DNA of 64,000 bases, taken from the NCBI GenBank assembly GCA_050015175.1, contig JBEKBX010000002.1, positions 118,614 to 182,613 on the forward strand, read 5' to 3'. The position numbers and the translations under genes are program-made. The notes beneath the pieces were generated by a model, which had not been told where the DNA came from, did no database searches, and saw only the letters and a list, made by a program, of their open reading frames with translations. This DNA is from Acidimicrobiales bacterium. GTDB taxonomy: Bacteria; Actinomycetota; Acidimicrobiia; Acidimicrobiales; Bog-793. Positions 43,088-59,574 of the stretch are shown in pieces. Position 1 is the first letter of the stretch, and the number at the start of each line of letters is the position of its first letter.

Positions 43088-43445
43088 TCGTCTACTTCCT
43101 AAGAGGACCTCGGACCGAGAACGGCGGCGTGGCGACTCTCCAAATCACCCCGCGTCAGTGAAGCACAGCATCATTCTGCCCTGTCGGGCAAGACGTGCTC
43201 GCAATGGTCCGGCTCGTTGCCGGCTCCAGCGGGTGCGGGGCTTCTTGCCCGGCCGGGAGGCGGGCTATGGGCGTTCAGATCCGTGACGCTAGAGTGAAAC
43301 CGACGTCGCGCTACACGACCCCGAGGAGCCTGTTGGTACCTGCTCAAGAGTGATCGAGCGTGCGGGCCATATCGCTTCGACGCCTTCTGGGCGCGGGCCG
43401 CTGGTTCAACACCGAAGTCGATGGTTACCGAAAAGGAGATCTGAC

Positions 43446-45143
43446 ATGGCCATGCCGAGCGACCTTGAGATCGCGCGCCAGGCTCACCTCAAGCCGATTG
43501 CCGAAATCGCGAAGGGTATGGGAATCGAACCGCGGATGCTCGAGCACTACGGCGAGAATGTTGCGAAGATCAAGCTGGACGCTATCGCCGAACTCGCCGA
43601 CCGCCCCAAGGCCAAGTACGTGGTCGTCTCCGCGATCACGCCGACGCCGCTCGGCGAGGGGAAGACGACGACGATCGTGGGGCTCGGCCAAGCCATGCAC
43701 CACATCGGCAAGAGCGCGACGATCTCGATTCGTCAGCCCTCTATGGGTCCCACGTTCGGCATCAAGGGTGGCGCTGCCGGTGGTGGCTACAGCCAGGCCG
43801 TCCCGATGGAATCCTTCAACCTCCACCTGACAGGGGACATGCACGCGGTGACGGCCGCGCACAACATGCTGTCGGCCATGGTCGACAACCACTTGCAAAA
43901 GGGCAACGAGCTCAAGATCGACCTGCACAACATCACTTGGAGACGCGTGCTTGACGTGAACGACCGAGCGCTCCGCAACATCGTGATAGGGCTCGGGACC
44001 AAACAGGACGGCGTCCCGCGCCAGACCGGCTTCGACATCACCGCCGCGTCTGAGGTGATGGCCATCCTCGCGCTGTCGGCGTCCTTAAAGGACATGCGGG
44101 CCCGCCTGGGAAGGATCGTCGTGGGTTACACCGATGACGGCGAGCCGGTGACCTCGGAGGACTTGAAGGGCGCAGGGGCGATGACCGTGATCATGCGCGA
44201 GGCCATCAAGCCGAACCTGCTCCAGACGATCGAGAACACCCCGGTGATAGTGCACGCTGGACCGTTCGGCAACATCGCCCACGGCAACTCGTCGATCGTC
44301 GGTGACTTGATCGGTATCCACACCGGCGACTTTCTCCTCACCGAGGCGGGCTTCGGCGCCGACATGGGAGCAGAGCGCTTCTTCGACATCAAGTGCCGCA
44401 CCTCGGGCCTCAAGCCCGATGCCGCCGTGGTCGTCGCCACGGTGCGCGCACTGAAGGTGCATTCCGGGCGGCACAAGGTCGCAGCCGGGCGCCCGCTGCC
44501 TCCCGCCATCTTGGAGGAGAACCCTGAAGAGGTTCATCTAGGCGGGGCGAACCTGCGCAAGCAGATCGAGAACATCCAGGTCTTCGGCGTCTCGCCTGTC
44601 GTCGCGATCAACGCATTCCCCGGCGACTTCCCCTCTGAGCACGAGGCGGTCCGTGAGATCGCGGCCTCGATGGGAGTCCGAGCGGCGGTGTGCACCAATT
44701 TCGCCGAGGGCGGCAAGGGAGCCACCGAGCTCGCGCAGGCGGTGGTCGAAGCGGCGGACGAACCGAGCGACTTCCGTTTGCTCTACCCGAACGAGGCGAC
44801 GTTGCGCGAGAAGATCGAGACGGTGGCCTCGAAGATCTACGGCGCCGCCGGCGTCGACTACCTGCCGGTCGCGAACCGCCAGATCGACTCCTACGAGAAG
44901 AACGGCTATGGGAACCTTCCGGTCATCATCGCCAAGACGCACCTGTCCTTGTCGTCGGACCCCTCGCTGAAGGGTGCGCCCACTGGGTGGCGCATGCCGG
45001 TGCGAGAGGCGCGTGCCTCGATCGGTGCGGGTTTCGTGTACCTCATCTGTGGCGACATGAGCACGATGCCGGGGTTGTCGACGCACCCGGCGGCCGAGAT
45101 CATCGACATCGACGAGAACGGCGAGATTGTCGGGCTCAGCTGA
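43446..45143 (+). CDS. fhs: Formate--tetrahydrofolate ligase
   Basis: Trimmed to the ATG at 43446 behind AAAGGAGA (565 aa). It has SDLEIARQA, TPTPLGEGKTTT and end-to-end Fhs collinearity. Confidence 0.95.
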   Translation: MAMPSDLEIARQAHLKPIAEIAKGMGIEPRMLEHYGENVAKIKLDAIAELADRPKAKYVVVSAITPTPLGEGKTTTIVGLGQAMHHIGKSATISIRQPSMGPTFGIKGGAAGGGYSQAVPMESFNLHLTGDMHAVTAAHNMLSAMVDNHLQKGNELKIDLHNITWRRVLDVNDRALRNIVIGLGTKQDGVPRQTGFDITAASEVMAILALSASLKDMRARLGRIVVGYTDDGEPVTSEDLKGAGAMTVIMREAIKPNLLQTIENTPVIVHAGPFGNIAHGNSSIVGDLIGIHTGDFLLTEAGFGADMGAERFFDIKCRTSGLKPDAAVVVATVRALKVHSGRHKVAAGRPLPPAILEENPEEVHLGGANLRKQIENIQVFGVSPVVAINAFPGDFPSEHEAVREIAASMGVRAAVCTNFAEGGKGATELAQAVVEAADEPSDFRLLYPNEATLREKIETVASKIYGAAGVDYLPVANRQIDSYEKNGYGNLPVIIAKTHLSLSSDPSLKGAPTGWRMPVREARASIGAGFVYLICGDMSTMPGLSTHPAAEIIDIDENGEIVGLS

Positions 45144-45741
45144 CGCGCCGGCATATCTCGAGGTCGGTCTCGGGAGCTTCCTCGAGCTCGTCTCCGCGGC
45201 CGAGCCGGCGCCTGGCGGCGGGTCGGCCGCAGCCGTAGCCGTCGGGCTGGCCGCGGGACTCTGCGTGATGGCGGCGCGTTTGTCCACGCGGCAGCTGCCG
45301 GACGCGCCGGACCTAGCACTCGCTGCCGCGCGGCTGCGCGATCGTGCCGCTGCACTCTGCCAGGCAGACGCAGAGGCCTACGGACTGGTCGTGTCGGCAT
45401 CCCACGAACCTTGTGGGCCTGACCCCGAGGGTCGCCGGCGCCGGATAGCCGCGGCCCTCTTGGTGGCGACCGACGTTCCATTGCAGGTCGTGGAGACGGG
45501 GGCCGGCGTCGCCGGTCTGGCCGCCAGGATCGCCGAGTACGGGAACCCGAATCTGCTGGGTGACGCCGTCACCGCGGCGTTGCTGGCGGAGTCCGGAGCG
45601 AGGGCGGCGGCCGCTCTCGCGCTGATCAACCTCAAAGGACTGCAGGACGACGACAGGCGGAACCGGATCGCCAAGCTGATCGAGGAGGCCGCAGACAGTG
45701 CCTCCATCGCGCGGCGCCTGTCGGACCAACTCTCGTCCTGA
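45127..45741 (+). CDS. Cyclodeaminase/cyclohydrolase-family protein (FTCD C-terminal domain type)
   Basis: 204 aa. It has PAPGGGSAAAVAVGLAAGLCVMAARL and NLLGDAVTAALLAESGARAA. The TTG start overlaps the fhs end; the start is uncertain. Confidence 0.7.
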   Translation: MSGSADAPAYLEVGLGSFLELVSAAEPAPGGGSAAAVAVGLAAGLCVMAARLSTRQLPDAPDLALAAARLRDRAAALCQADAEAYGLVVSASHEPCGPDPEGRRRRIAAALLVATDVPLQVVETGAGVAGLAARIAEYGNPNLLGDAVTAALLAESGARAAAALALINLKGLQDDDRRNRIAKLIEEAADSASIARRLSDQLSS

Positions 45742-46015: not shown

Positions 46016-47464
46016 ATGAGCTGGTTTGAATGCGTACCCAACTTCTCAGAAGGCCGGGACCAGGCCAAGATCGCCCGCATCGTGGCCGAGGCGCAGAACA
46101 GACCGGGGGTGTCGCTGCTCGATGTCGAGCAGAATGCCGACCACAACCGTTGTGTGGTCACCCTCGTCGGTGAGGGGCCGCCGCTTGTGGAGGCGGTGCT
46201 GCGCATGATGCGGGTGGCGACGACCGTCATCGACCTTACGAGCCACCGGGGCGAGCATCCACGGATGGGCGCCACCGACGTGGTCCCATTCGTGCCGCTC
46301 GGCGAAGCCACCACCGAGCAGGCGATCGACCTCGCCGTCAGCCTGGGCACCCGCGTGTGGGAGGAGCTGCACATTCCGGTTTACCTGTACGGCCAGGCCG
46401 CTCGGCTGCCTGAGCGCCAGGATCTCGCGAAGGTGCGTGCCGGACAGTTCGAGGCCATCCGCGACACGATCGGGACGGACCCTGCCCGGCGCCCGGACAT
46501 CGGCGAGGCACGGGTGCATCCGACGGCGGGCGCGGTGGCGATCGGCGCCCGGCCGGTGCTCATCGCGTACAACGCCTACCTGACTACCCCTGACGTCGCT
46601 GTGGCCAAGCGGGTGGCACGCGCCGTGCGCGCTCGTGACGGAGGCCTGGCGGAGGTCAAGGCGCTGGGCTTCGAGATCCACGAGCGCCAGCGCGCGCAGG
46701 TATCCATGAACCTGACCGACTACCGACGAACGCCGATCCACCGCGCCGTCGAAGCTGTGCGGCGGGAAGCAGCCCGTTTTGGCGTGGGCGTGGAGGAAAC
46801 CGAGGTCGTGGGCCTCGTGCCCGAGGACGCCCTGTTCGACGCGGCTGAGTATTACCTGCAGCTCAACAGCTTCGACCGGGGCACCGTCCTCGAGCGCAAG
46901 GTGCGTGGCGTGCAGCCATCCGGGGAGTCCCTCTCTGATTTCGCCGCCCGGCTCGCCGCGCGGACACCCACCCCCGGAGGTGGGAGCGCGGCCGCCGCGG
47001 CCGGCGCCATGGGGGCCGCCCTCGGGGAGATGGTTGCCGCCTACTCTGCCGGCAAGGACGACGTGACGCTGGACGAGTTTCGGGAGCGGTTCGCCGCCGC
47101 CCGCAGTCGCTTTCTGGGCCTGGTCGAACAGGACGCCCAGGCCTACGCGGACACGGTCACAGCGCGTCGGGCGACCAAGTCCCAGCCCGGGCCCGAGGCG
47201 GAGCAGGCCTGGACGGCCGCCATCCGGCACGCCGCGGATGTCCCGCTCGAAACCGCGCGCCTCGCCTGGAGCTGCGCAGCCGAGCTCCGCGAGCTCGGCG
47301 ACCGGGTACGGCCTGTGATGAAGAGCGACTGGACCACGGCGCTGGCGCTGTTGGATGCGGCGCGGGAGGGCGCTGTTGCCAATGTGGTCATAAACGTCGA
47401 CGACCTGCGGGAGCGGGCGGTCGACATCACTGATCTGGAAGCCGCCATCCGCGAGCTCGTCTAG
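46016..47464 (+). CDS. ftcD: Bifunctional glutamate formimidoyltransferase / formimidoyltetrahydrofolate cyclodeaminase
   Basis: 482 aa. N-terminal ECVPNFSEGRD, HNRCVVTL and HPRMGATDVVPFVP. The C-terminal ~170 aa repeat the cyclodeaminase pattern (PTPGGGSAAAAAGAMGAALGEMV). Confidence 0.9.
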   Translation: MSWFECVPNFSEGRDQAKIARIVAEAQNRPGVSLLDVEQNADHNRCVVTLVGEGPPLVEAVLRMMRVATTVIDLTSHRGEHPRMGATDVVPFVPLGEATTEQAIDLAVSLGTRVWEELHIPVYLYGQAARLPERQDLAKVRAGQFEAIRDTIGTDPARRPDIGEARVHPTAGAVAIGARPVLIAYNAYLTTPDVAVAKRVARAVRARDGGLAEVKALGFEIHERQRAQVSMNLTDYRRTPIHRAVEAVRREAARFGVGVEETEVVGLVPEDALFDAAEYYLQLNSFDRGTVLERKVRGVQPSGESLSDFAARLAARTPTPGGGSAAAAAGAMGAALGEMVAAYSAGKDDVTLDEFRERFAAARSRFLGLVEQDAQAYADTVTARRATKSQPGPEAEQAWTAAIRHAADVPLETARLAWSCAAELRELGDRVRPVMKSDWTTALALLDAAREGAVANVVINVDDLRERAVDITDLEAAIRELV

Positions 47465-47822
47465 CTCGAGCGATGCGACGGAAGAGACAGTTTCGAGAAG
47501 CCTGGGTTGGGCGAGCCGGTTCGTAGGTACAGGCCGTTCCCTTGGAGCCAAACAGCGGCAAAGGTATTCAGTGCTTCGTCACGCCCTGAGTGCCTGCGTT
47601 TGCTTGTGGTCGCGGCCACGATCTGATACAACGAACTCAGCACGCGTGAATTCGTTGGAATCAGTCATATAGCGGCGAAGGTTCCTCGTTCCCAGTAGAG
47701 GTGAGGTGCAGGGGACGCGCCGGACCTTTGACTCCTCACCGGGTGTGGGCACGCGGGCGAAAAGTTGCTTGTCACCGTCTTGCCTATCCGCGTCCAGCGT
47801 CGACGACAGGAGGCGGTGTGTA

Positions 47823-49259
47823 ATGAGCACTCAGCAGACCTACACCAGTAGCTTGCAGATCGAGCACCGCTCGATCGACTATATCCCCGCCTCGGAGAGG
47901 CATGGCACACCGAACCGCCTTTTCTTCATCTGGTTCGGGGCCAACATGCAGATAACTGCGGCTGCGGCGGGGGCGGTCGCTGTGCTGATAGGGCTGTCCT
48001 TGCCCTGGGCGCTGCTCGCCCTGCTGATCGGCAATCTCTTCGGCGTCACGTTCATGGCGGCTCACTCGGCGCAAGGGCCGACATTGGGCATCCCTCAGAT
48101 GATCCAGAGCAGGGCCCAGTTCGGCTTCTACGGCGCGATCGTCCCTCTCGTTCTCGTCTTGTTGATGTACGTCGGATACTTCGCCGCCAGCGCGATCCTC
48201 GGCGGCGCCGCCCTGGCCGCCTGGTGGGGCATCAACACCAAGCTGGCCACTGTCATCGTCTCGCTCATCTGCGCGGTGCTCGCCGTCTACGGCTACCGCA
48301 TGATCCACCAGTACGAGCGATGGGTGAGCCTGGTGAGCGGCCTCGGCTTTGTGTACCTCACGATCCGGCTGCTGACCCTGCACCACATCAGCACGGTCTG
48401 GCACTCCGGGAGCGTGCCCTACGGCACCTTCCTGCTCGCCATCACCGTGGCGGCCACCTGGCAGATCACCTACGCCCCGTACGTCGCCGACTACAGCCGC
48501 TATCTGCCTGAGGACACCAGCAAGGCGGCGACCTTCTGGTGGACAGCGTCGGGTTCGGTGATCGCCTCGTTCTGGCTGATGGGCTTCGGCGCCGTCGGGC
48601 TCGCCGTCGCCCCGAAGCTGTTCAACAACGGGAGCGTGACCTTCTTCACGGGACTCGGCAACAACCACACGGGCTGGCTGATCGCGCTGATCATCATCGG
48701 GGGCATCGTGGCAGCCAACGTGCTGAACCTCTACGGGATGTTCATGTCCGCCACCACGACCATCACAGCGTTGCGCCGGATGCAGGTGCACCGCGGGGCC
48801 CGGACGGTTTTCGTGCTCGTCGCCGCGGTTATCGGCACCGTGATCGCGATCGCGGCGACCTCGAGCTTCCTCACGAACTTCGAGAACTTCATCCTCTTCC
48901 TGGCCTACTTCCTGATCCCGTGGACGGCGATCAACCTGACCGACTTCTACTTCGTGCGCAAGGAGCAGTACGACATCGACTCGATCTTCAGGCCGGACGG
49001 GATCTACGGGCGGGTCGACTGGCGGACGATGGCGGCATACCTGATCGCCATCGGAGTAGAGGTTCCGTTCATGAACACGACCTTCTACGCCGGACCGATG
49101 GTCTCGCACCTCGGGGGCGGAGACATCTCCTGGATCCTCGGACTGATCGTGGCCAGTGGCCTCTATTACGTGCTGCATATCGGTGTGGACGTGATGCCTC
49201 ACGCCAAGTCGGTGGCCCCTTCGCAGCCGGCCGAGGCTGTCGAGTCGGCGGATCGGTGA
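47823..49259 (+). CDS. NCS1-family (purine-cytosine/hydantoin-type) permease
   Basis: Trimmed to the ATG at 47823 behind AGGAGG (478 aa). It has [41 protein letters not shown] and 12 TM segments. Confidence 0.85.
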
Positions 49260-49263
49260 CGCG

Positions 49264-50943
49264 ATGACCAGCGGACCACGCACTGTACGCGCGCCGCACG
49301 GCAGCCAGCTCACATGCAAGGGCTGGCCGCAGGAAGCGGCGATGCGCATGTTGATGAACAACCTCGACCCCGACATCGCCGAGCACCCCGATCAGTTGAT
49401 CGTCTACGGGGGCGGAGGAAAGGCAGCTCGCAACTGGGCCGCCTACGACGCAATCGTGGCGAGCCTGCGGGAGCTCGGGCCCGAGGAGACCCTGCTCGTC
49501 CAGTCCGGCAAGCCGGTGGGCGTCTTCCGGACCCACGAGTGGGCGCCGCGAGTCCTGATCGCGAACGCGAACCTTGTGCCGCAGTGGGCGACCTGGGAGG
49601 AGTTCCGCCGCTTGGACGCCCTCGGGCTGACGATGTTCGGACAGATGACCGCCGGGTCGTGGATATACATAGGGACCCAGGGGATCCTGCAGGGAACCTA
49701 CGAGACCTTCGCCGCAGTTGCAACCAAACGCCACGGCGGCAGTCTCGCCGGCACAATCACCCTCACCGCCGGGCTCGGCGGGATGGGTGGCGCCCAGCCG
49801 ATGGCGGTCACGATGAACGGCGGCGTCGCGTTGTGCGTCGAGGTGGACCCGTCACGGATCCAGCGTCGCTTGGACACCGGCTACCTCGACGTCCTCGCCG
49901 ACGGGGTCGACGACGCGCTCAGCCGGGCCATGGAGGCGAAACGCAACCGGCAGGCGCTGTCGATAGGCATCCTGGGCAACGCCGCCGACGTCGTGCCCCA
50001 CCTGCTCGCGATCGGGGCGGAGATCGACGTAGTGACCGACCAGACCTCGGCGCACGACCCGTTGATGTACGTCCCGAGCGGCGTGAGCGTGGACGAGATG
50101 CCTGACCTCAGGGCCAAGGACCCCGAAGGGCTCACCAAGATGGCACGCGAGTCGATGGTCCGCCACGTCGAGGCGATGATCGGCTTCCTGGACGGAGGGG
50201 CCGAGGTGTTCGACTACGGCAACTCGATCCGCGCCGAGGCGAGGACGGGTGGCTGCGAACGCGCCTTCGACTTCCCCGGTTTCGTTCCCGCGTACGTGCG
50301 ACCGCTCTTTTGTCAGGGCAAGGGCCCGTTCCGGTGGGTCGCGCTGTCCGGCGATCCGCGCGACATCGCCGCTACGGACGAGGCGGTACTCGCCGAGTTC
50401 CCGGACAACGAGTCCCTCGGCCGGTGGATCAAGATGGCAGGCGAACGGGTGCAATTCCAAGGGCTGCCGGCGCGGATCTGCTGGCTCGGGTACGGGGAGC
50501 GCGACCGGCTCGGCTTGCGTTTCAACGACATGGTCGCCCGCGGCACGCTCAAGGCGCCCATCGTCATCGGACGCGACCACCTCGACTGTGGGTCTGTCGC
50601 CTCGCCTTATCGGGAGACCGAGGGCATGTGCGACGGGTCGGACGCGATCGCCGACTGGCCGCTCCTGAACGCCTTGCTGAACACGGCTTCCGGCGCCTCG
50701 TGGGTGTCGATCCACCACGGCGGGGGAGTCGGGATCGGCCGTTCCATTCACGCAGGGCAGGTGACGGTCGCAGACGGTACGGCGCTCGCCGCCGAGAAGC
50801 TGGAACGGGTGCTCACCAACGACCCTGGCAGCGGTGTCATCCGGCACGTCGACGCCGGTTATGTCGAGGCGGAGCAAGTGGCCGCGGCCCATGGGTTGCG
50901 GGTTCCGATGCGCGATCACGGCGAGAAGACGGTGGCGACATGA
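49264..50943 (+). CDS. hutU: Urocanate hydratase (canonical)
   Basis: 559 aa with [62 protein letters not shown] and HHGGGVGIG. It closely matches Pseudomonas HutU as I recall it. Confidence 0.95.
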
Positions 50944-52154
50944 AGCTCACCGATCGGGACACGGAGATGCTTGACGGGGTCGACGGCGAAGGCGTGGCGC
51001 TCGCCATGCAAGTTCTCGTCGCGATCGGCCGGGCGTTCGACGCCGAGCAGATGTGCGACATCTCCCGGGCGCACGTCGCGTTGAGCAACCAGGACGCGGA
51101 CATCTGGTTCGCAGAGCGGCTGGTAGCAGGGGGAGCGGTGTGCCGGATCCCACCTACGGTCAATCCGGGCTTCTGCCTCGAGTTCTTCCGGCACGTCCCC
51201 GGCCTGACGCCTGAGGACATGGAGCCCATGGAGCGCACCGAGGCCGCCTACCGGGCGCTCGGCGCGCAGCTGACCTACGACTGCACGCCTTATCTGCAGG
51301 GCAACGTTCCGCGTTTCGGCGAGGTCACCGCTTACTCGGAGTCGAGCGCCACCCCCTACATGAACTCGGTCTATGGGGCACGCACGAACCGTGAGTCGGC
51401 CCAGTCCGCCTTGTGCGCCGCGGTGACCGGCCGGGTTCCGATCTACGGCCTTCTCCTCGACGAGAACCGCAAGGGACAAGTGCACGTGCACGTCGAGCCG
51501 ATGCTCACCGACGAGTTCGACTATCACCTGCTGGGCTACGCGGTGCCTCGAAAGGCCGGCCTGCAGACCGCCTTCATCCCCGTGTTCACGGGCATCCCTG
51601 CGAACGTGAGCCCGGAGGCGCTCATGAACTTGGGAGCCGAGTTGAACACGGGTGGCAACGTGCCGATGTACCACATCGTCGGGGTCACCCCCGAGGCACC
51701 CACGCTCGAGGCCGCGTTCCACGGCGAGCCTCCCGGCGAGCCCATCGTCATCACCGCCGACGATCTCGCCGAGGAGCAGCAGATGCTTTCCGCGGAGGGC
51801 GGCCCCATCGACTTCGCGCTCCTCGGCTGCCCGCACCTGTCGCTCGGCCAGCTCCGGGCGATAGCCGATCGGATCGGTGGTCGCCAGTTCAAGGTTGAGT
51901 TCTGGGTCATGACGTCGTTCTACGCGAAGGAGCTCGCCGTCCGCATGGGCATTGCCGAGGTGATCGAAAAGGCCGGGGGCCAGCTGGTCCCCGACACTTG
52001 CATCGACCAGGTCGCCTGGAAGCATCTGGCGGGCAAGAAAGGTGTCACCGACTCGCTGAAGGGCGCGTACTACACACAGCGGCGTGACATGGAGTTCGTG
52101 CTGCGCAGCGTGGGTGACTGCGTCGAGGCCGCTATCAAAGGAGATGCGTCATGA
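50940..52154 (+). CDS. Aconitase X catalytic (large) subunit, DUF521
   Basis: Track ORF 50310..52154 trimmed to the ATG at 50940, which overlaps the hutU stop (ATGA). [46 protein letters not shown] is a typical DUF521 N-terminus. Candidate Fe-S Cys residues lie in LLGCPHLS and PDTCID. Confidence 0.85.
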
Positions 52155-52564
52155 CCGCCCGGGAAGTAACCGTCATCGGTTGCCGGGGCGCGGCGCCGGG
52201 CAAGGCGACCGGCCCGGCCGTCGTGTCAACCGACGCCATCTGCTTCTATCTGGTGGACCCACCCACGGGAACCGTCATCGAGTCCGGTCACGCCATCGAG
52301 GGCAGGAGAATCGCCGGGACCGTCCTCGTCTGTCCTGGAGGAAAGGGGAGCTCGGTGGTCCAGGCCGACGGTCTCTACCAGCTTGCCAAGGCCGGCACGG
52401 CACCGGTCGCCGTCGTCGTCGCGGAGTTCGACACCGTGCTCGTGGCGAGCGCCGTGGTCGTCGGCGTTCCACTCGTGCGCTGCGCCCCCGAGGACTTCGC
52501 ACGCATCAGCGACGGTGACGTGCTGGACGTGGACTCCGACCGGGAAGTCGTCACGATCCGGTGA
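52151..52564 (+). CDS. Aconitase X swivel (small) subunit, DUF126
   Basis: 137 aa with ATGA overlap to the upstream gene. It shows the DUF126 pattern GKATGPAVVS, VLVCPGGKGSSVV, GTAPVAVVVAE and GVPLV. Confidence 0.85.
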   Translation: MTAREVTVIGCRGAAPGKATGPAVVSTDAICFYLVDPPTGTVIESGHAIEGRRIAGTVLVCPGGKGSSVVQADGLYQLAKAGTAPVAVVVAEFDTVLVASAVVVGVPLVRCAPEDFARISDGDVLDVDSDREVVTIR

Positions 52565-53862
52565 TCGCCCCCCCGGTCGTACGCTCGCTGCGACGCGGCG
52601 AGGTGGAACTGCCGCGGGTGCGCCTGGTCAGGCAGCTCTTCACCGTGCCACCGCCTGTCGACGTGGCCGCGCGGGTGGTCAGCGAGTGGCACCGGCTCGC
52701 ACCCCGGATCAACCCGACTGCGGGTGCGCAGATCGCGGTGGCCGTCGGCAGCCGGGGCATCGACGGCTTGGCGCCCGCAGTGCGGGCCCTCGTCGCAGAG
52801 TTGCGCTCTGCCGGCTGCGAACCATTCATCGTGCCCGCCATGGGCTCCCACGGAGGTGCGACCGCGTCCGGCCAAACCAAGGTTCTCGCAGGTCTGGGCA
52901 TCACCCCAGAGACGGTAGGGGCCGAAGTCCGAGCGACAATGGACGTGGTGAGCGTCGGCGTTGTGGGCGACGCCCCACTGTGCCTAGACCGGCTCGCCGC
53001 CGAGTCCGACGGCATCGTGGTCGTCAACCGGGTCAAGCCACACACGGACTTCGCCGGGCCGATGGGAAGTGGCTTGTTGAAGATGCTCTGCATAGGGCTG
53101 GGCAACCAGGAGGGCGCCGACCGGCTGCACAGGATGGGCGTGGCCCGGGACCTGGGTGAGGTCGTGCGCGAGGCGGGTGTCGCGATCGTGCAGCGAGTGC
53201 CCGTCCTGTTCGGCGTGGCGATCCTCGAGAATCAGCAGCACCGTGCCTGCGACGTGCGGCTCGTGCCCGGTCCCGACATCGAGTCGGTGGAGCTGGCCCT
53301 CCAAGACGTCGCACGAGAGCTCCTCCCCGGTCTCCCCCTCGACGACATCGACCTCCTGATCATCGACGAGATGGGCAAGGACATTAGCGGCGCGGGACTG
53401 GACCCGAACGTCATCGGCCGTTCTCTCGGGCCCTGGCAGGTCAAGAGGGATCGGCCCCGCATCACGCGGATCTTCGTGCGCGACCTGACCCCTGCCTCGG
53501 AGGGCAACGCCTGCGGTCTCGGCTTCATCGACGTCACGACTCCACAACTCATCGAGAAGGTCGACCTCGAGGTGACCGCCGTGAACGCCATCACGGCATG
53601 TTTCCCGGAGGACATGCGGCTGCCGCTGACCCTGCCGACCGACCGTGACGCGATCGGCGCCATGCTCGACACACTCCGGCCGTTCACGGCAGAGGATCTG
53701 CGCCTGGTGCACATCAAAAGCACACTCGAGGTCGAGCATCTCGTCGTGTCCGAAGGTTGCCTGCCCGCTCTTCAGGGCCGGTCCGACGTGATCATCGAGG
53801 AGGAACCACGATTTTTCGGGTTCGACGAAGACGCCCGACTGGTTTCGCCGCTGCCGGGATAG
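52561..53862 (+). CDS. LarA-like (DUF2088, lactate-racemase N-terminal domain family) protein
   Basis: 433 aa with GTGA overlap to the upstream gene. The layout IAVAVGSRG...FIVPAMGSHGG...VKPHTDFAGPMGSGLLK resembles the LarA_N pattern, but with altered motif residues. Confidence 0.55.
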   Translation: MIAPPVVRSLRRGEVELPRVRLVRQLFTVPPPVDVAARVVSEWHRLAPRINPTAGAQIAVAVGSRGIDGLAPAVRALVAELRSAGCEPFIVPAMGSHGGATASGQTKVLAGLGITPETVGAEVRATMDVVSVGVVGDAPLCLDRLAAESDGIVVVNRVKPHTDFAGPMGSGLLKMLCIGLGNQEGADRLHRMGVARDLGEVVREAGVAIVQRVPVLFGVAILENQQHRACDVRLVPGPDIESVELALQDVARELLPGLPLDDIDLLIIDEMGKDISGAGLDPNVIGRSLGPWQVKRDRPRITRIFVRDLTPASEGNACGLGFIDVTTPQLIEKVDLEVTAVNAITACFPEDMRLPLTLPTDRDAIGAMLDTLRPFTAEDLRLVHIKSTLEVEHLVVSEGCLPALQGRSDVIIEEEPRFFGFDEDARLVSPLPG

Positions 53863-53969
53863 CAGCGTCCTCGGCAGGCTTCCCGAGCGGTTTGCGCGCA
53901 GCGCGCCAGACACTTCTCGAAGCTCTCGACGCCGTGCTCAGGCCGCCCACTGGCACCTCGAGAAGCTAG

Positions 53970-54686
53970 TCAAATGGTGTCCAGGACTTTCCTGAGCGCG
54001 GCGACGACCTTCGCGGGTTCAGGATCCTCCACGACGTAGCGACCGAACACCAAGCCATCAACGGCGGAGCCAAGCTGGCGGACCCGGGCGAGCATGTCGT
54101 CGAGGCCGCCGCGTCTCGCACCGCCCAAGAGCAGCACCGGTATCGACGCGTATTCGGTGACTTCCGGCAGTGTTCCTTCGCTGGGAGGCGGGATCTTGGC
54201 AAGATCGGCACCGGCTTCTGCCGCCCGGCGGATCGACTGGCGGAGGTTGGACGCCGTGTGAACCGCGACTTGCTCGAATCCCCCGGGAACCACCTCAGCC
54301 ATGACAGGCAGGTTCCAGCGATCAGCGTGGACCGCCAAGGCTTCCAGGCAGCGCATCGTGGTAACTTCGAGGTCGGAATACGGGTAGACCTCATATTTCA
54401 AAGCGGATGCGCCGAAAGCGACAGCCTGCTCGACGACCTGCTGCGGCTCTTGGTGATCCTGGCTGACGCTGATCACGACGGCCCGACCGGTGAGGTGGTT
54501 CTCGAAGTGTCGGGCGGTGGACTGCGTCAGCAGGTACGCGTCGACGTCGGCGGACTGCAGGCTGTTCAGGACTCGGCCAGGGTCGGCCAGTGCCGCGACA
54601 TGTATCGCGCGTGGTTGGTCCATCGCGACGATCAACGCCTTTCTCCCCGGCGGGAGCAGGCGATGCAACCTAAGGAGACGGCCCAT
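53970..54686 (-). CDS. Class I aldolase-like protein (DhnA/FbaB/LsrF family)
   Basis: Track ORF trimmed to the ATG at 54686 (238 aa). MGRLLRLHRLLPPGRKALIVAMDQ is a typical family N-terminus, and a candidate Schiff-base Lys lies in GADLAKIPPP. The start is uncertain (alternative ATG at 54719; no clear RBS). Confidence 0.7.
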   Translation of the reverse strand: MGRLLRLHRLLPPGRKALIVAMDQPRAIHVAALADPGRVLNSLQSADVDAYLLTQSTARHFENHLTGRAVVISVSQDHQEPQQVVEQAVAFGASALKYEVYPYSDLEVTTMRCLEALAVHADRWNLPVMAEVVPGGFEQVAVHTASNLRQSIRRAAEAGADLAKIPPPSEGTLPEVTEYASIPVLLLGGARRGGLDDMLARVRQLGSAVDGLVFGRYVVEDPEPAKVVAALRKVLDTI

Positions 54687-55124
54687 GCGCGCTGTGTTAG
54701 CACACCAGCGGCGCCTCATGCTGCATGCCAGCTCGAACGGCCCCGGCCCCGCCAGGTGTCTGCCAGCGTCGTGAACGACCGGCAGCGCCCCTCGAGTCGA
54801 GGAAGGTCCCATCATCCGCTGCAGCCAATTCGGCGACCACCCCGCGCGCGCACCGAAGCCGAGAAGCGACCGGTGCTGCGCGGTAGGAAGCGGTGTCACA
54901 TGATGCAACAGCCGACACCCTCGCGTCGCGGAGATCGGCGATCGACCGTTGCGCGATGGCAGGGACTTCACACGTCGGACCGTTGTTTCCGACTCGCACC
55001 AGATTGGCGGGCGGTACCCCGGGCGTAACGATTATGGGCGCGGCTTGTGGCGACGTGGACAATGCGGGCCGACAGTCACGGGCGTTTTGCCAAGACCCGA
55101 TGTGCCCGCGCCTTGCTATGAGTC

Positions 55125-55159
55125 AAACGCCCGGCCGGTGTGCACCGGCCGGGCGTTTT
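55125..55159. terminator. Bidirectional rho-independent terminator
   Basis: Perfect 16-nt arms AAACGCCCGGCCGGTG / CACCGGCCGGGCGTTT flanked by T/A runs, 21 nt past the SBP stop on the minus strand. Confidence 0.7.
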
Positions 55160-55179
55160 GAGGCAGATCTCTTTAGCTC

Positions 55180-56193
55180 TTAAGCGGAGGTCTTGTAGTA
55201 GTACGCCGAGATCATGGGGTTGCTGGCGTTGGCGGTCGTTGCCACGACGTTCGGCAGGAACACCGACTTCTTGATCAAGGACTTGTGTCCCGTTAGGTAG
55301 TCGTAGGCGTACTGCACGGCCAAAGACCCTTCCTCGGCAGGGTTTTGGATGACCAGGATGTTGATGACGCCCTGCTTGAGCAGGGTGACCTCGGCGGGCT
55401 CGGCGTCGTAGCCGGCCACGAAGACCTTGCCCTTCATCCCGGCGGCGTCGACGCCCTTAGCGGCGCCCTCGGCCGAGTACAGATTGGTGCCGAAGATACC
55501 CACGAGGCCCGGGTGCGAAAGGATGAGGCCCCTCGCCAGAGTTTCTGCAGTGGTCGGGCTGTCCTGGTCGTAGTCCGCGGCTACCACCTTCATGTTGGTG
55601 TACTTCTTCATCTCGAAGAGGAAGCCGGACTGGCGCAGGTCGGTGGTGGACACGCCCTTTTCGACGTTGATGATCGCCACCTGGCCCTTGTCGTGGGAGA
55701 GCTTGGCGATCGCGTCAGCAGCAGCCTCGCCGCCCTGGTAGTTGTCCGAGCTGATGGCCGAGGTCAATATCGAGGTGTCCTTGAGGGTCGTGTCCACCGC
55801 GATCACCGGGATCCCGGCCTTCACATACGAGTCGATCGGGTTGAACAGGGCCACGTCATCGGTCGGTGCGATCAGCAGGGCATCGGGTTTGCTCGCGAGG
55901 ACCGACTTCACCACTGGGATCTGGAGCTCCAGGTTCCAGGTCGTGGCGCCTGCCCAGTTGAGGGTTACCCCAAGCTTCTTGGCCTCTTGGATCGCACCGT
56001 AGTGCATGGTGATGTAGAAGGGGTCAGTGGTGAGACCAGGGATGAGGGTGATCGTGTACTTGCTGGCGGCACCGGCCGCCGTCGCCCCTGTACCCGCCGT
56101 GACGGCGAGCGTCGTGCTCGCCACGAGGCCGAGCACTGCTACCCCGATTGCGGCACGCGACCGCAGGCCACTGAACCAGCGTCTATGGGTCAT
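55180..56193 (-). CDS. Sugar ABC transporter substrate-binding protein (RbsB/PBP type I)
   Basis: 337 aa with a signal/lipoprotein-like N-terminus and Peripla_BP_4-like motifs (DPFYITMHYGAIQEA, GIPVIAVD, SDNYQGG). Confidence 0.9.
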   Translation of the reverse strand: MTHRRWFSGLRSRAAIGVAVLGLVASTTLAVTAGTGATAAGAASKYTITLIPGLTTDPFYITMHYGAIQEAKKLGVTLNWAGATTWNLELQIPVVKSVLASKPDALLIAPTDDVALFNPIDSYVKAGIPVIAVDTTLKDTSILTSAISSDNYQGGEAAADAIAKLSHDKGQVAIINVEKGVSTTDLRQSGFLFEMKKYTNMKVVAADYDQDSPTTAETLARGLILSHPGLVGIFGTNLYSAEGAAKGVDAAGMKGKVFVAGYDAEPAEVTLLKQGVINILVIQNPAEEGSLAVQYAYDYLTGHKSLIKKSVFLPNVVATTANASNPMISAYYYKTSA

Positions 56194-56246
56194 GTGTTTC
56201 CTCCTCTTTCTTTCTCTAGGTATGGGATCAGTCGGGACGTCATGGC

Positions 56247-57314
56247 TCAGCGCTCCGCCAGGCGCAGGCGCACCTGGTCACCCGCAACAGCGGCGACCAC
56301 GATGACGCCGGTGGCCACCTCTTGCCAGCTGCCGCTGACGCCGATCAGCACGAGGCCTGTGACCAACAGGGCGATGATGAAAGTCCCCACCACCGTGCCG
56401 AGCATGTGGCCCCGTCCTCCGAAAAGGCTGGCGCCCCCGATGACGACCGCGGCGATGGCGTTGAGCTCATCGTTCTGACCGGCCAACGGTGAGGCGTCGG
56501 TGAAGTTGGCCATCACCATCATCCCTGCCAGGCCGGCCAGGAGCCCGGATATCGTGTAGACCTTCACAAGGTGGTTGTCGACCCCGATGCCGGCGCGTCG
56601 CGCGCCCATGCCGTTGCTGCCTATCGCGTAGGTGCGCAACCCGAAACGGGTGCGGTGCAGGAGTAGTCCCATGAACGCGCAGCTCAACCCTGCCACCAGC
56701 ACCGGGACGTAGATCCAGCCGCCGATCAAGGTCTGGCCGATGGTGCCGATCTGGGAGGGGAGGTTGATGACCTCGTTGCCACCGTTGATCAACGGGGTCG
56801 CCCCGGCCCCAATGGCGGTCAGGCTACCCAGCGTGACGATGAAGGGGGGCAGCTTTAGCCGGGTGATGAGGTAGCCGTTCACGAAGCCGATGAGCGCCCC
56901 CAACGCCAGGGCGGTCGCGAAACCGGCCACGGTCGTGAGCGTGACGTTCGCGTGCGCGTTGAGAAGACCCTGCATGACCACTCCCGAGACCATGCCCGTG
57001 AAACCGAGCACGGCTCCGTCGGAGAGGTCGATGCCACCGGTGATGATCACGAAGGTCTGGCCGATGGCAAGCAGCAGGAACTCAACTGCATACTGGGAGA
57101 TGTTCAGCCAGCTGGCTCGAGTGAACAGGTCGTGGGAAGGCGAGAGGAACCCGAATACCAGGACCATGATGACGAAGACGCCCAGCATCCAGTAGTCCCC
57201 GAAGCGGTCCACGGCATTGAGCAAGCCTGACCGTTGACTCTCCTCGCCCTCTGGACCAGAACCGTTGGTCGCCGTCCCTGCTGGGGTGAACGCGGAGGGC
57301 AACCTAATCGACAT
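56247..57314 (-). CDS. Sugar ABC transporter permease (RbsC type)
   Basis: 355 aa, polytopic, with a BPD_transp_2-type pattern (TGGIDLSDGA, FGGRG). Confidence 0.9.
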   Translation of the reverse strand: MSIRLPSAFTPAGTATNGSGPEGEESQRSGLLNAVDRFGDYWMLGVFVIMVLVFGFLSPSHDLFTRASWLNISQYAVEFLLLAIGQTFVIITGGIDLSDGAVLGFTGMVSGVVMQGLLNAHANVTLTTVAGFATALALGALIGFVNGYLITRLKLPPFIVTLGSLTAIGAGATPLINGGNEVINLPSQIGTIGQTLIGGWIYVPVLVAGLSCAFMGLLLHRTRFGLRTYAIGSNGMGARRAGIGVDNHLVKVYTISGLLAGLAGMMVMANFTDASPLAGQNDELNAIAAVVIGGASLFGGRGHMLGTVVGTFIIALLVTGLVLIGVSGSWQEVATGVIVVAAVAGDQVRLRLAER

Positions 57315-57343
57315 GAGCCTGTCCCCGCCCCCGACCCAGCGGC

Positions 57344-58162
57344 CTATTCACCCGCATGGCGTTCCGTTCCCAGCGCAGCGCCGGTGATCCAGCTGACCAT
57401 GTCGTCTACGGTCACTTCCGAGCAGCGAAGATCGGCCACGACATGCCCGTGGAACAACACGGCCACCCTGTCAGCGAGCTTGTGCACCTGGGGCAGGTTG
57501 TGGGTGATCAGGAGGATGGGAACGCCGTGCGCTGACACCGAGCGGATCAGCTCTCCCACAGTCTCCTGCTGCTCGACGCCGAGGGCGGCCGTGGGCTCGT
57601 CCATGAGGAGGACTCGCGAGCCCCAGGACACAGCCCGCCCCACCGCGATCGCCTGGCGCTGGCCGCCGGAGAGTCTCCCTGCCAGGGAGTTCACCGAAGC
57701 TATACGGATGTGGGTCCGATCGAGGTCCGCCTCTGCCTCACGGGCCATTCCGCGGCGATCGAGCCAGCCCATTAGGCGGAGAGGTCCTTTCACAGTCTTC
57801 TCGCGGCCGAGGAAGATGTTCTGCCATACGCTCAAGTCGGGTGCGAGTGAGAGATCCTGGTAGACGGTCTCGATACCCGCGCGGCGCGCCTCCAGGGAAG
57901 AGGCGAACGTCACCGGATGGCCGTCCAGCAGGATCGTGCCTGCGTTCGGCTGCAAAGCCCCTGAAAGGATGTTCACAAGGGTCGACTTGCCGGCGCCGTT
58001 GTCGCCTATCAGCCCGACCACTTCACCTTTGTGAACGTCCAGGTCGACACTGCGCAGCGCTTGTATGCTGCCGAAGTGCTTGGCGATGCCCCTGACCGCG
58101 ATGACCGGCGGCCCCGCGTCGGAAGCGACGCTCTCCGGGACCACGCCAGTGGTAAAGCTCAT
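57344..58162 (-). CDS. Sugar ABC transporter ATP-binding protein, single NBD
   Basis: 272 aa with Walker A GDNGAGKST, signature LSGGQRQ and Walker B LLMDEPT. Confidence 0.9.
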   Translation of the reverse strand: MSFTTGVVPESVASDAGPPVIAVRGIAKHFGSIQALRSVDLDVHKGEVVGLIGDNGAGKSTLVNILSGALQPNAGTILLDGHPVTFASSLEARRAGIETVYQDLSLAPDLSVWQNIFLGREKTVKGPLRLMGWLDRRGMAREAEADLDRTHIRIASVNSLAGRLSGGQRQAIAVGRAVSWGSRVLLMDEPTAALGVEQQETVGELIRSVSAHGVPILLITHNLPQVHKLADRVAVLFHGHVVADLRCSEVTVDDMVSWITGAALGTERHAGE

Positions 58163-58214
58163 GCACTCTTCTCCCGTGCGTAAATCTTTCGCAACATTGC
58201 AGGTTTAGGCAACG

Positions 58215-59570: not shown

Positions 59571-59574
59571 ACCG

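Follow-up and report, generated by a model that had tools for sequence, protein, structure and literature searches.

Background

In the canonical Hut pathway HutH, HutU and HutI act in turn and are followed by FtcD or by HutF/HutG, and clusters that hold hutU without hutH are also normal in some actinobacteria (Streptomyces). In classical Pseudomonas biochemistry, imidazole-lactate is oxidised to imidazole-pyruvate, which is then transaminated to histidine. Another related scheme is the Stickland reductive branch for aryl amino acids, where an aminotransferase, a D-2-hydroxyacid dehydrogenase (D-2-HADH) and a 2-hydroxyacyl-CoA dehydratase lead to an enoate; the known dehydrations of aryl-lactates need CoA activation and radical chemistry.

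Aconitase X (AcnX) and LarA homologs (LarAHs), like NCS1 permeases, are part of no described hut pathway, and we found no description of a link between AcnX or LarA and histidine catabolism in the literature searched. Both characterised AcnX enzymes, which act on cis-3-hydroxy-L-proline or mevalonate-5-phosphate, abstract the C2 proton of their substrate and eliminate its 3-hydroxyl (PMC8184944). The usual neighbours of group 22 LarAHs are IlvD/Edd dehydratases, SDRs, TRAP transporters and sugar kinases (Desguin 2020), and LarAHs are known that epimerise 2,3-dihydroxybutyrate and aldonates (PMC11770544; PMC7583248).

Organization of the operon

The 64-kb stretch of DNA analysed here, referred to as the window, contains five + strand genes at 47823-53862 that form one translationally coupled operon. 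These genes, and the other hut and one-carbon genes of the window, are as follows.

9483-10664, + strand: hutI, imidazolonepropionase (TIGR01224, 362.8 bits, cutoff 298)
43350-45143, + strand: formate-tetrahydrofolate ligase, Fhs (PF01268, 836 bits)
45127-45741, + strand: stand-alone cyclodeaminase-domain protein (PF04961, 114 bits)
46016-47464, + strand: FtcD, glutamate formimidoyltransferase fused to a cyclodeaminase domain (TIGR02024, 368 bits; FTCD_N, FTCD and FTCD_C)
47823-49259, + strand: NCS1-family permease, 478 aa (PF02133, 199 bits)
49264-50943, + strand: hutU, canonical urocanate hydratase, 559 aa (TIGR01228, 902 bits, cutoff 375)
50940-52154, + strand: AcnX large (catalytic) subunit, 404 aa (PF04412, 413 bits)
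52151-52564, + strand: AcnX small (swivel) subunit, 137 aa (PF01989, 84 bits)
52561-53862, + strand: LarA homolog of group 22 (LarAH22), 433 aa (NF052515, 459.5 bits, cutoff 400)

The NCS1 reading frame starts at the ATG at 47823, 9 nt downstream of an AGGAGG (47808-47813), and stops at the TGA at 49257-49259, leaving a gap of 4 nt before the hutU ATG at 49264. From there each stop overlaps the next start: hutU and AcnX large share the ATGA at 50940-50943, the two AcnX subunits share the ATGA at 52151-52154, and AcnX small shares the GTGA at 52561-52564 with the LarAH, whose frame ends at 53862. The GTG start is supported by a database protein of 433 aa that is 100% identical over its full length. 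The gene order, the 4-nt gap and the three overlaps are in every coordinate those of the first-pass annotation. That annotation had also considered that an internal terminator might separate hutU from the genes behind it; the overlaps leave no room for one, and a scan of the + strand within 47300-54200, which is weak evidence for an actinobacterium, showed no terminator-like or sigma-70-like sites. No Rfam family reached its gathering score anywhere in the 64-kb window.

The description of hutU as canonical was borne out, as its product also matches the Geobacillus urocanase 1x87 over its full length with 830 bits and scores under the cutoffs for thiourocanate hydratase and S-methyl-thiourocanate hydratase. 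Among NCBIfam families, the NCS1 permease weakly matches the ncs1 subfamily and the CytX hydroxymethylpyrimidine transporter, and homologs at 45-46% identity adjoin LarAH22 in locus L083 and AcnX in locus L126. FtcD, which carries out a lower hut step, is encoded immediately upstream of the operon on the same strand, and the Fhs and stand-alone cyclodeaminase genes before it (43350-45741) handle the one-carbon unit that FtcD releases; the same trio is found upstream in L115 and L116. The hutI gene, which bridges the HutU and FtcD steps, is unlinked, lying 37 kb upstream of the operon, and its product is 38% identical over the full length to HutI of the Sporolactobacillus locus L090. Since hutU is canonical and hutI, FtcD, cyclodeaminase and Fhs genes are all present, the window covers every step from urocanate to glutamate. 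The first-pass annotation had described the operon correctly and left this hutI unconnected to it, together with a second, thiourocanate-hydratase-like urocanase paralog that the window also holds. The locus differs from the canonical pathway in that the operon has no canonical hutH linked to it within the window; the sole HAL-family gene there (37300-38931) falls short of its cutoff (359 against 539) and is part of an ergothioneine-type cluster.

Aconitase X

Residues of AcnX were assigned by alignment to the structures 7cnr and 7cnp. By this alignment C115, C297 and C354 serve as Type-II Fe-S ligands in the large subunit, which also keeps the core residues E134, S135, S136, K374 and Y378, the Glu-Ser-Ser and Lys/Tyr set that grips the substrate carboxylate and hydroxyl. 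In the small subunit the aligned counterpart of the general-base serine (Tk S62, At S70) is S67. The protein would thus share with the characterised Type-II enzymes the two-subunit layout, a [4Fe-4S]-type ligand set and the catalytic core. It differs from them in being bacterial and in its predicted specificity determinants: the aspartate that binds the proline nitrogen (At-D203) falls in an alignment gap, and the phosphate loop G48-V49-S50 of the T. kodakarensis enzyme, the closest solved structure, is deleted. The segment equivalent to this loop instead carries a motif that is invariant in the subfamily (R43, H45-Q51, A53, D54, W56, F57). AcnX therefore appears to have neither set of specificity residues, that for cis-3-hydroxyproline or that for mevalonate-5-phosphate. 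Its genomic context likewise consists of hut and 2-hydroxy-acid enzyme genes, and not of isoprenoid or hydroxyproline genes.

The LarA homolog

The fifth protein belongs to the NCBIfam family 'nickel pincer cofactor-dependent isomerase, group 22' (NF052515). It had earlier been labelled DUF2088; the assignment to the LarA family holds, while at the Pfam level the label is only weakly true, the Lar_N match being sub-threshold (19.5 against 23.3). Its AlphaFold model (pLDDT 75) has LarA-family proteins as all of its top 18 PDB fold matches, although it is very distant from characterised LarAs, with 12-18% identity in the fold alignments. The motifs GSRG, AMGSHGG and KPHTDF...SGLLK...H are common to this protein and the group 22 members from Desguin 2020, and its residues R65, H97, H161, K174 and H190 correspond to the R-H-H-K-H signature of the group. 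It is probably an NPN-dependent 2-hydroxy-acid racemase or epimerase. The first-pass annotation had noted an altered LarA motif and held the use of the cofactor to be open. The motif is the normal signature of group 22, and as this group keeps its catalytic and cofactor-binding residues, and a homolog at 67% identity is flanked by larE-larB-larC, cofactor use is much less open than it had seemed. The absence of larB, larC and larE from the window stands, nothing similar being present among its annotated ORFs (a few short ORFs are unannotated).

Relatives of the LarAH at 69-70% identity (L083, L172) are encoded in clusters of an FMN-dependent L-2-hydroxyacid dehydrogenase (FMN_dh), HAL, NCS1 and LarAH. 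Imidazole-lactate is the only simple substrate that would link these enzymes, by way of imidazole-pyruvate and histidine. At 60-63% identity the homologs adjoin LutBC, and more distant ones adjoin D-2-HADH, FAD oxidases and TRAP transporters. While the LarAH of the window is paired with AcnX and HutU, the IlvD/Edd-type context reported for group 22 was also seen in 4 of 80 loci.

Conservation and recurrence

The order NCS1-HutU-AcnX large-AcnX small-LarAH22 is kept in all of the longer contigs of the window clade, down to a LarAH identity of 76%, with FtcD either upstream or, as in the sister contigs L081, L082 and L162, directly downstream of LarAH22. For recurrence outside the clade, 48 dereplicated loci of the AcnX subfamily and 80 control loci were compared. 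HutU, HutI, HutF-like or FtcD genes were found in 17 of the 48; HutU or FtcD was present in 14/48 against 0/80 of the controls (Fisher p = 3e-7). HutU itself occurs in 11/48, hutH is rare (3/48), and in 37 of the 48 the AcnX neighbour is a LarA-family protein, a D-2-HADH or a HisD paralog. The architectures vary. Sporolactobacillus L090 and L094, L098, L104, L125 and L127 encode M20, HutF-like, AcnX, D-2-HADH, SBP, HutU and HutI; L099 and L102 encode LarAH, AcnX, SBP, HutD, RpiR, M20, HutF, HutU and HutI; and L146, with HutU, Fhs, AcnX, LarAH, a transporter and FtcD nearby, has the gene set of the window again, rearranged and at 39-53% identity. That this AcnX subfamily lies near hut genes and genes of 2-hydroxy-acid enzymes is thus a conserved and recurrent feature, and the earlier concern that the hutU-AcnX adjacency might be unique to one genome was not realised. 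Against this, SDR, Zn-ADH, a HisD paralog and a sugar-type ABC transporter are encoded at the AcnX loci nearest the window clade, which lack HutU and have HutI and FtcD in two cases only. In about two thirds of the loci outside the clade no hut gene is within reach, and many of these have TRAP transporters and GntR regulators only.

A possible entry branch to histidine utilisation

We propose, with a probability of about 0.45, that the operon adds an entry branch to histidine utilisation in which AcnX dehydrates imidazole-lactate to urocanate for HutU. The NCS1 permease would import a 2-hydroxy carboxylic acid that carries an imidazole, with imidazole-lactate the likeliest candidate; the LarAH, with its nickel-pincer cofactor, would interconvert the C2 enantiomers; and the heterodimeric AcnX, as a [4Fe-4S]-type hydro-lyase, would dehydrate the substrate to urocanate. 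HutU would then hydrate urocanate to imidazolone-propionate, and the unlinked HutI with the adjacent FtcD, cyclodeaminase and Fhs would complete the route to glutamate, ammonia and formate. From the recurrence of the same gene combination beside histidine-degradation genes in distant bacteria, a feeder route is the most likely function. We infer which substrate is used, which way the flow runs and that AcnX eliminates the 2-hydroxyl. Translational coupling, conservation in the clade, independent architectures, the FMN_dh-HAL-NCS1-LarAH clusters and the residues of AcnX and of the LarAH cofactor site also argue for this reading. The feeder for an imidazole hydroxy-acid suggested by the first-pass annotation thus gains support from its context, while its chemistry is still only deduced.

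The proposed nutrient is that of the Pseudomonas imidazole-lactate route, which the L083 and L172 clusters resemble with a racemase added. The window operon differs in having neither a hydroxy-acid dehydrogenase nor HAL, and since its dehydratase is coupled to HutU, a direct step from imidazole-lactate to urocanate is implied. The Stickland branch follows the same logic from 2-oxo acid through D-2-hydroxy acid to alpha,beta-unsaturated acid, and the pairing of AcnX with D-2-HADH in the Firmicute-type clusters recalls it; however, there is no CoA-transferase, activator or radical dehydratase here, so that an aconitase-type Fe-S hydro-lyase would have to dehydrate the free acid. Because the characterised AcnX enzymes eliminate a 3-hydroxyl with the C2 proton, dehydration of a 2-hydroxy acid would be unprecedented for the family. 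Imidazole-lactate would have to lose its hydroxyl from C2, and its C3 proton is not alpha to a carboxylate; this counts against the proposed branch, as do the non-clade loci without HutU or any hut gene.

The main rival, which we consider unlikely, keeps the canonical AcnX chemistry. AcnX would act on an imidazole-bearing 2,3-dihydroxy acid, such as imidazole-glycerate, or on a beta-hydroxy-histidine-like compound to give the enol of imidazole-pyruvate, LarAH22 would be the C2 epimerase that provides the right diastereomer, and transamination to histidine and a HAL encoded elsewhere would lead to HutU. The conserved catalytic core and the known epimerisation of 2,3-dihydroxybutyrate and aldonates suit this reading. 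The literature neighbours of group 22 point to 2,3-dihydroxy or sugar acids, the tie to IlvD/Edd dehydratases having an analogous epimerase-plus-dehydratase logic, and the genes at the nearest non-clade AcnX loci fit a polyol being oxidised to an acid that is then dehydrated. Aminotransferase or HAL-like genes also adjoin AcnX in L105, L122, L123, L126, L139, L144, L149, L152, L153, L155 and L165. Yet this reading requires at least a transaminase and a HAL that the operon lacks, while the gene that is translationally coupled to AcnX is HutU, and hutH is rarer than HutU in the dereplicated loci. The FMN_dh-HAL-NCS1-LarAH clusters suit a plain 2-hydroxy acid, a D-2-HADH in the position of the LarAH would demand an odd 3-hydroxy-2-oxo substrate, and we know of no environment in which imidazole-glycerate is a nutrient.

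It is also rather improbable that AcnX and LarAH22 act on a non-imidazole hydroxy acid (for example a sugar acid, or a dicarboxylate of the malate or tartrate type), with the co-transcription of hutU being regulatory or historical, or the permease carrying two substrates. Many loci of the subfamily have no hut gene and just a LarA or D-2-HADH gene with TRAP transporters and a GntR regulator, and the group 22 context in the literature is sugar-acid-like. Sugar genes for a DeoC-like aldolase, a ribose-type ABC transporter, an FGGY kinase and Dak1 form a convergent cluster right behind the operon, but this cluster is on the opposite strand and missing from the sister loci, and no sugar genes surround the AcnX and LarAH that stand between HutU and FtcD in L081, L082 and L162. 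The enrichment of hut genes beside the subfamily in several unrelated architectures, and the HutD, HutP, HutI and HutF-like genes within the same operons as AcnX, also argue against it. An activity of the characterised AcnX enzymes is highly improbable: family membership and the closest solved structure would favour it, but NF051439 scores 231 against a cutoff of 700, and the annotated neighbourhoods contain no hydroxyproline or mevalonate pathway genes. The aligned residues bear equally on the earlier caveat that AcnX might prove to be a cis-3-hydroxyproline dehydratase, those specific to that activity being missing. We give just as little credence to AcnX and LarAH22 acting after HutU, as a substitute for imidazolonepropionase or to repair or epimerise imidazolone-propionate. 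The operon does lack hutI while FtcD, the step after HutI, is adjacent; however, the window has its canonical hutI, hutI and AcnX occur together in the Firmicute-type clusters, aconitase chemistry is not amide hydrolysis, and imidazolone-propionate is not a 2-hydroxy acid. If AcnX does dehydrate imidazole-lactate to urocanate, the operon marks an undescribed entry of an imidazole hydroxy-acid into histidine breakdown.

Organization of the operon and the hut genes of the window

The block at 47823-53862 carries five genes on one strand:

47823-49259, forward strand: NCS1 permease, with AGGAGG 9 nt 5' of its ATG
49264-50943, forward strand: hutU, starting 4 nt past the permease stop
50940-52154, forward strand: large subunit of aconitase X (AcnX; DUF521), ATGA overlap with the hutU stop
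52151-52564, forward strand: small subunit of AcnX (DUF126), ATGA overlap with the large subunit gene
52561-53862, forward strand: LarA homolog, GTGA overlap with the small subunit gene

We re-checked these coordinates, and the five reading frames lie where the first-pass annotation had placed them. Overlaps of 4 nt at three junctions in a row are typical of translationally coupled genes, so it is justified to treat the block as one operon in which hutU and AcnX are predicted to be translationally coupled. A scan for consensus promoters and terminators found no such site on the forward strand inside the block. In the whole window, which has a G+C content of 66.7%, no Rfam family reaches its gathering score, and a riboswitch or other RNA element 5' of the permease was dropped as a candidate for that reason. 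The permease matches PF02133 over profile positions 1-440 of 440 (199 bits) and falls under every NCBIfam equivalog cutoff.

The hutU product matches TIGR01228 (EC 4.2.1.49) over its full length with 902 bits against a cutoff of 375, its three urocanase domains (PF17391, PF01175 and PF17392) match end to end, and it aligns over its full length with Geobacillus urocanase 1x87 (830 bits). It misses the cutoffs for thiourocanate hydratase (668 versus 930) and S-methyl-thiourocanate hydratase (708 versus 880), and is 48% identical to a second, thiourocanate-hydratase-like urocanase paralog of the window. Judged by these profile matches, hutU encodes a canonical urocanate hydratase. The gene for the following step of the pathway stands apart from the operon:

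9483-10664, forward strand: hutI, canonical (TIGR01224, 363 bits versus a cutoff of 298), alone, 37 kb from hutU

Directly 5' of the operon, on the same strand, are genes for formate-THF ligase, a cyclodeaminase-domain protein, and glutamate formimidoyltransferase (FtcD) fused to a cyclodeaminase domain; since hutI is also there, the route from urocanate to glutamate is complete within the window. A role for AcnX and the LarA homolog downstream of HutU is very improbable given the presence of hutI, and their use as a HutI replacement was rejected, as the window has a hutI of its own and the Firmicute-type clusters described below include one too. The cyclodeaminase C-terminal domain of FtcD occurs twice, side by side, once free-standing (45127-45741) and once fused to FtcD (46016-47464, forward strand), with formate-THF ligase just 5'. 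A 454-aa ORF whose C-terminal half resembles HisN histidinol-phosphatase (240 bits versus 275) precedes hutI (8078-10664, forward strand).

Other gene clusters of the window

A second histidine-derivative operon, similar to those of ergothioneine catabolism, occupies 31867-38931 on the forward strand and includes:

within 31867-38931, forward strand: ErtD-like hydantoin-5-propionate amidohydrolase
within 31867-38931, forward strand: second urocanase paralog, closest to thiourocanate hydratase (748 bits, cutoff 930)
within 31867-38931, forward strand: thiohydantoin-desulfurase-like gene (385, cutoff 440)
within 31867-38931, forward strand: ErtE (530, cutoff 520)
37300-38931, forward strand: divergent lyase of the histidine ammonia-lyase (HAL) family, last gene of the operon (hutH model 359, cutoff 539)

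From its gene content this looks like an operon for ergothioneine-type catabolism, and since most of its members score under the equivalog cutoffs, it may act on a related thio-histidine or betaine. Its lyase gene, well under the hutH cutoff, is the sole HAL-family gene of the window, which has no canonical hutH, and there is no HAL gene in the hutU operon. In a classical hut operon (hutHUI...) hutH adjoins hutU, whereas here the nearest HAL-family gene belongs to another operon. An unlinked hutH is also found in Streptomyces.

A sugar-type cluster (53970-60612) converges on the hutU operon and encodes a DeoC/LacD-family aldolase (ADH-synthase-like), a ribose-type ABC transporter, an FGGY kinase and a Dak1 domain protein. 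The aldolase is kept 3' of the operon in part of the window clade, the contigs that keep the same operon (L107, L112, L114, L115 and L117), and FtcD takes its place in L081 and L162. Another hydroxy-acid or sugar-acid cluster, at 21216-27695, consists of an IclR regulator, a Zn-ADH, a KduD-like SDR, a GlcD-like FAD oxidase and an FGGY kinase, and adjoins a Dpp/Opp-type ABC transporter (19328-21049; 27677-31640). The window also encodes two fusion proteins, one of MoeA with a PBP-like domain (12441-14567, reverse strand) and one of a chorismate-binding (PabB-like) domain with a class IV aminotransferase (PabC-like) domain (15501-17648, forward strand).

Aconitase X

The AcnX subunits match PF04412 (large subunit, 413 bits, cutoff 31.5) and PF01989 (small subunit, 84 bits, cutoff 27), and 496 of 600 pattern-matched metagenome stretches encode a relative of this two-subunit subfamily. 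We mapped residues by pairwise HMM alignments to 7cnr (Thermococcus kodakarensis, Tk) and 7cnp (Agrobacterium tumefaciens, At), read against PMC8184944; the pocket comparison consists of these pairwise sequence alignments only. The large subunit aligns with the Type-II cysteine set (C115, C297 and C354), the equivalent of At-C510 being absent, and this set points to a [4Fe-4S]-type cluster. Also kept are Glu-Ser-Ser (E134, S135, S136) and Lys/Tyr (K374, Y378), through which AcnX binds the carboxylate and the hydroxyl to be lost (PMC8184944), and S67 of the small subunit aligns with the general-base serine (Tk S62, At S70).

The specificity residues differ from those of both characterised enzymes. 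On the equivalog for the cis-3-hydroxyproline enzyme the window protein scores 231 bits against a cutoff of 700; at the positions by which that enzyme holds the ring nitrogen of its substrate, Asp203, which binds the proline nitrogen, is replaced by a gap and Thr72 by Val69. Compared with 7cnr, the large subunit has a three-residue deletion exactly at Gly48-Val49-Ser50, the phosphate loop of the archaeal mevalonate-5-phosphate dehydratase (AcnX Type II), and the same segment bears a subfamily-invariant motif (R43, H45-Q51, A53, D54, W56, F57). As the cis-3-hydroxyproline Asp and the mevalonate-5-phosphate loop are both missing, the window AcnX is predicted to have a third specificity, distinct from both characterised activities, and with these residues against it the view that it simply has one of the two known activities hardly seems credible.

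The LarA homolog of group 22

The last gene of the operon encodes a protein 100% identical to an NCBI protein from an Acidimicrobiales MAG. It matches NF052515 ('NPN isomerase group 22') with 459.5 bits against a cutoff of 400, hence LarAH22, and falls under the Pfam Lar_N threshold (19.5 bits). A sequence search against the PDB gave a sole, marginal match (4nar, E = 0.6), so a fold search was needed to confirm the homology. A Foldseek search with the AlphaFold model (pLDDT 75.2, pTM 0.77) places LarA, Mar or LarA-like structures in all of its first 18 PDB positions (E 9e-11 to 5e-7, probability 1.0); their TM-scores are only ~0.45, which would fit a differing domain orientation.

LarA has two catalytic histidines, an NPN-tethering lysine and a histidine that completes nickel coordination (PMC12611868). 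In the supplement of Desguin 2020, group 22 comprises 20 proteins, given as of 'unknown function', which retain an R, H, H, K, H signature for catalysis and cofactor binding, and LarE is linked to 30% of the members (Desguin 2020). In the window protein the motifs GSRG, AMGSHGG and KPHTDF...SGLLK...H yield R65, H97, H161, K174 and H190, of which H97 (AMGSHGG), H161 (KPH), K174 (SGLLK) and H190 are invariant in our alignment A1; signature and motifs match those of the group 22 proteins Rxyl_2987 and Bcoa_1745, by a motif-based mapping that draws on no solved complex. No annotated ORF of the window resembles LarB, LarC or LarE. Contig L173 (4413-9350) has a larE-like gene (a faint match), larB (AIRC) and larC (Ni_insertion) directly 5' of a 67% LarAH22 homolog. 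The first-pass annotation had regarded the LarA motif as altered and cofactor use as open, a concern largely answered by the motif being the normal group 22 signature and by these larE/B/C-type genes, and the window protein likely uses the nickel-pincer cofactor. In L173 a GFO/IDH/MocA oxidoreductase and a GntR regulator come next after the 67% homolog.

Gene neighbourhoods of LarAH22 and AcnX

More than 7,600 database clusters match the LarAH22 query at E <= 1e-5, a number that includes more distant LarA relatives. At 76-100% LarAH identity the same operon is kept, and FtcD lies directly 3' of LarAH22 in L081 and L082 and also in L162, a locus found from the AcnX side; an unannotated 421-aa gene after LarAH22 in L171 may be FtcD too. 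At 69-70% the cluster consists of an FMN-dependent L-2-hydroxyacid dehydrogenase (FMN_dh), HAL (near-canonical hutH, 533 bits), NCS1 and LarAH, with AcnX absent. One gene per contig is broken in these clusters, the FMN dehydrogenase in L083 (5698-6820) and L084 and NCS1 in L172 (6450-7892), which reflects either decaying genes or assembly frameshifts. At 60-63% LutBC lactate-utilisation genes and aminotransferases are nearby. The HAL-containing clusters of the closest LarAH relatives point to imidazole-lactate as a candidate substrate.

A scan of GTDB species genomes by LarAH22 alignment gave 80 genomes of many phyla at 38-59% identity (L001-L080). HutU, AcnX and FtcD were found near LarAH in 0 of these 80 loci, which we reused as a negative control, so the hut link is carried by AcnX and not by LarAH group 22 overall. 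The commonest neighbours in this set are D-2-hydroxyacid dehydrogenase (D-2-HADH, 15 loci), Fe-ADH (12), TRAP transporters (7), IclR (7), FAD oxidases (5) and IlvD/Edd dehydratases (4). Across all these identity levels the profile, on gene content, is that of a 2-hydroxy-acid racemase or epimerase serving stereospecific downstream enzymes.

AcnX relatives are 82-93% identical in Acidimicrobiales, and the next are at 58-68%, mostly Bacillota where the source is named (Pelotomaculum, Desulfotomaculum, Sporolactobacillus, Propionispora, Ethanoligenens and Thermoanaerobacterium). A metagenome scan added 80 AcnX loci, and dereplication at 90% AcnX identity left 52 groups, 4 of the window clade and 48 others. 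HutU or FtcD lies near AcnX in 14 of the 48 non-clade groups versus 0 of the 80 control loci (Fisher p = 2.8e-7), any hut gene (HutU, HutI, HutF-like or FtcD) in 17, HAL in 3, and a LarA-family protein, D-2-HADH or HisD paralog in 37; as many metagenomic loci are short, these counts are lower bounds.

The adjacency of hutU and AcnX, which would have counted against the first-pass interpretation had it been unique to this genome, clearly recurs elsewhere, in several unrelated architectures. L090 (Sporolactobacillus spathodeae) and likewise L094, L098, L104, L125 and L127 have M20, HutF-like, AcnX, D-2-HADH, SsuA-type binding protein, HutU and HutI, and L099 and L102 have LarAH, AcnX, binding protein, HutD, RpiR, M20, HutF-like, HutU and HutI (gene labels for the high-GC loci L096 and L099 come from tblastn). 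In L146 HutU, Fhs, AcnX, LarAH and a transporter, with FtcD nearby, repeat the window gene set at 39-53% identity in another order. A further type has SDR, Zn-ADH, GntR, AcnX, HisD paralog and a sugar-type ABC transporter, followed in L091 and L092 by HutI and FtcD, and L126 combines SDR, Zn-ADH, HisD paralog, NCS1, AcnX, a regulator, HutP, an amino-acid permease and HAL. L149, whose contig bears the label of a human gut metagenome assembly, has a related AcnX and HAL-like genes and none of the searched hut genes.

In L123 (3114-20944), L149 and L152 the two AcnX subunit genes are followed by a second, divergent AcnX-like gene at 29-31% identity (PF04412, 316 bits in L123), and in L123 the neighbours are a HAL-like lyase (34%), a BCCT betaine-type transporter, an Ldh_2 dehydrogenase, a molybdenum hydroxylase, HutU and HutI; these clusters may serve a pathway for a betaine-type histidine derivative. 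The AcnX/D-2-HADH hut cluster of L104 has a family III CoA-transferase and an acyl-CoA dehydrogenase between hutI and hutU (9939-12284), which could be an extra feeder from imidazole-propionate to urocanate via a CoA ester.

A possible pathway and its alternatives

AcnX most often occurs in the context of the hut steps that start at urocanate, in most cases with hutH missing, and its neighbour almost always makes or inverts a 2-hydroxy acid, being a LarA-type racemase, a D-2-HADH (from a 2-oxo acid) or a HisD paralog, a type of enzyme that converts 1,2-diols into 2-hydroxy acids. A classical imidazole-lactate route is known from Pseudomonas. The simplest reading is a route by which imidazole-lactate would be imported by NCS1, its enantiomers equilibrated by LarAH22, and one of them dehydrated by AcnX to urocanate, which HutU would hydrate before HutI, FtcD and Fhs finish the breakdown. 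Our data establish what the genes are, that they are coupled and how often they lie together, whereas we infer the substrate, the direction of the reaction and the regiochemistry of water loss. More generally, heterodimeric bacterial AcnX would dehydrate imidazole-lactate directly to urocanate, independently of CoA, with LarAH22 or D-2-HADH supplying the enantiomer, as a hutH-independent entry in at least Actinomycetota and Bacillota. We put this forward tentatively, at a probability of about 0.35.

Chemistry is where this reading is weakest. In both characterised AcnX enzymes it is the C2 proton and the C3 hydroxyl that leave (PMC8184944), whereas from imidazole-lactate the C2 hydroxyl would have to go, along with a C3 proton lacking activation by any carboxylate. 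Canonical AcnX chemistry would be retained if the substrate were a 2,3-dihydroxy acid such as imidazole-glycerate, converted to imidazole-pyruvate and then through histidine and HAL to the substrate of HutU. Group 22 is reportedly associated with IlvD/Edd dehydratases, polyol-type genes surround the AcnX loci nearest the window clade, and some AcnX loci have aminotransferase and HAL neighbours, all of which would suit such a substrate; however, the enzymes it requires are missing from the operon and the FMN_dh-HAL-NCS1-LarAH clusters are left unexplained, and we consider it rather doubtful. That AcnX and LarAH22 act on a substrate unrelated to imidazole would agree with the roughly two-thirds of non-clade AcnX loci that have no hut gene within reach. 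For the window clade this seems unlikely, since hut genes are enriched near AcnX and since L081 and L162 have AcnX and LarAH placed between HutU and FtcD.

In the literature searched we found no paper that links AcnX/DUF521 with urocanate or histidine, or imidazole-lactate with a dehydratase, the matches being metabolomics papers only; the LarA papers, including a later LarA survey, do not mention aconitase or urocanate. The finding is a new and still hypothetical version of a known pathway, assembled from known enzyme families whose specificities here are unassigned. Imidazole-propionate and other imidazole metabolites are medically relevant. For the bacterial two-subunit AcnX subfamily and LarA group 22, two sizeable groups to which no function has yet been assigned, the operon and its relatives offer a concrete and cheap test, with imidazole-lactate as substrate and the UV absorbance of urocanate as readout. 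If the 2,3-dihydroxy acid were the true substrate, it would still be a new substrate class for AcnX. If instead the direct dehydration of imidazole-lactate is correct, it would provide a third AcnX activity, the first function assigned to LarAH group 22, and a hutH-independent entry to histidine catabolism for imidazole-lactate or imidazole-pyruvate. It would also add to the aconitase superfamily an alpha-hydroxyl elimination beside a heteroaromatic ring on a free acid, a type of elimination otherwise known, to our knowledge, only from radical CoA-dependent dehydratases.
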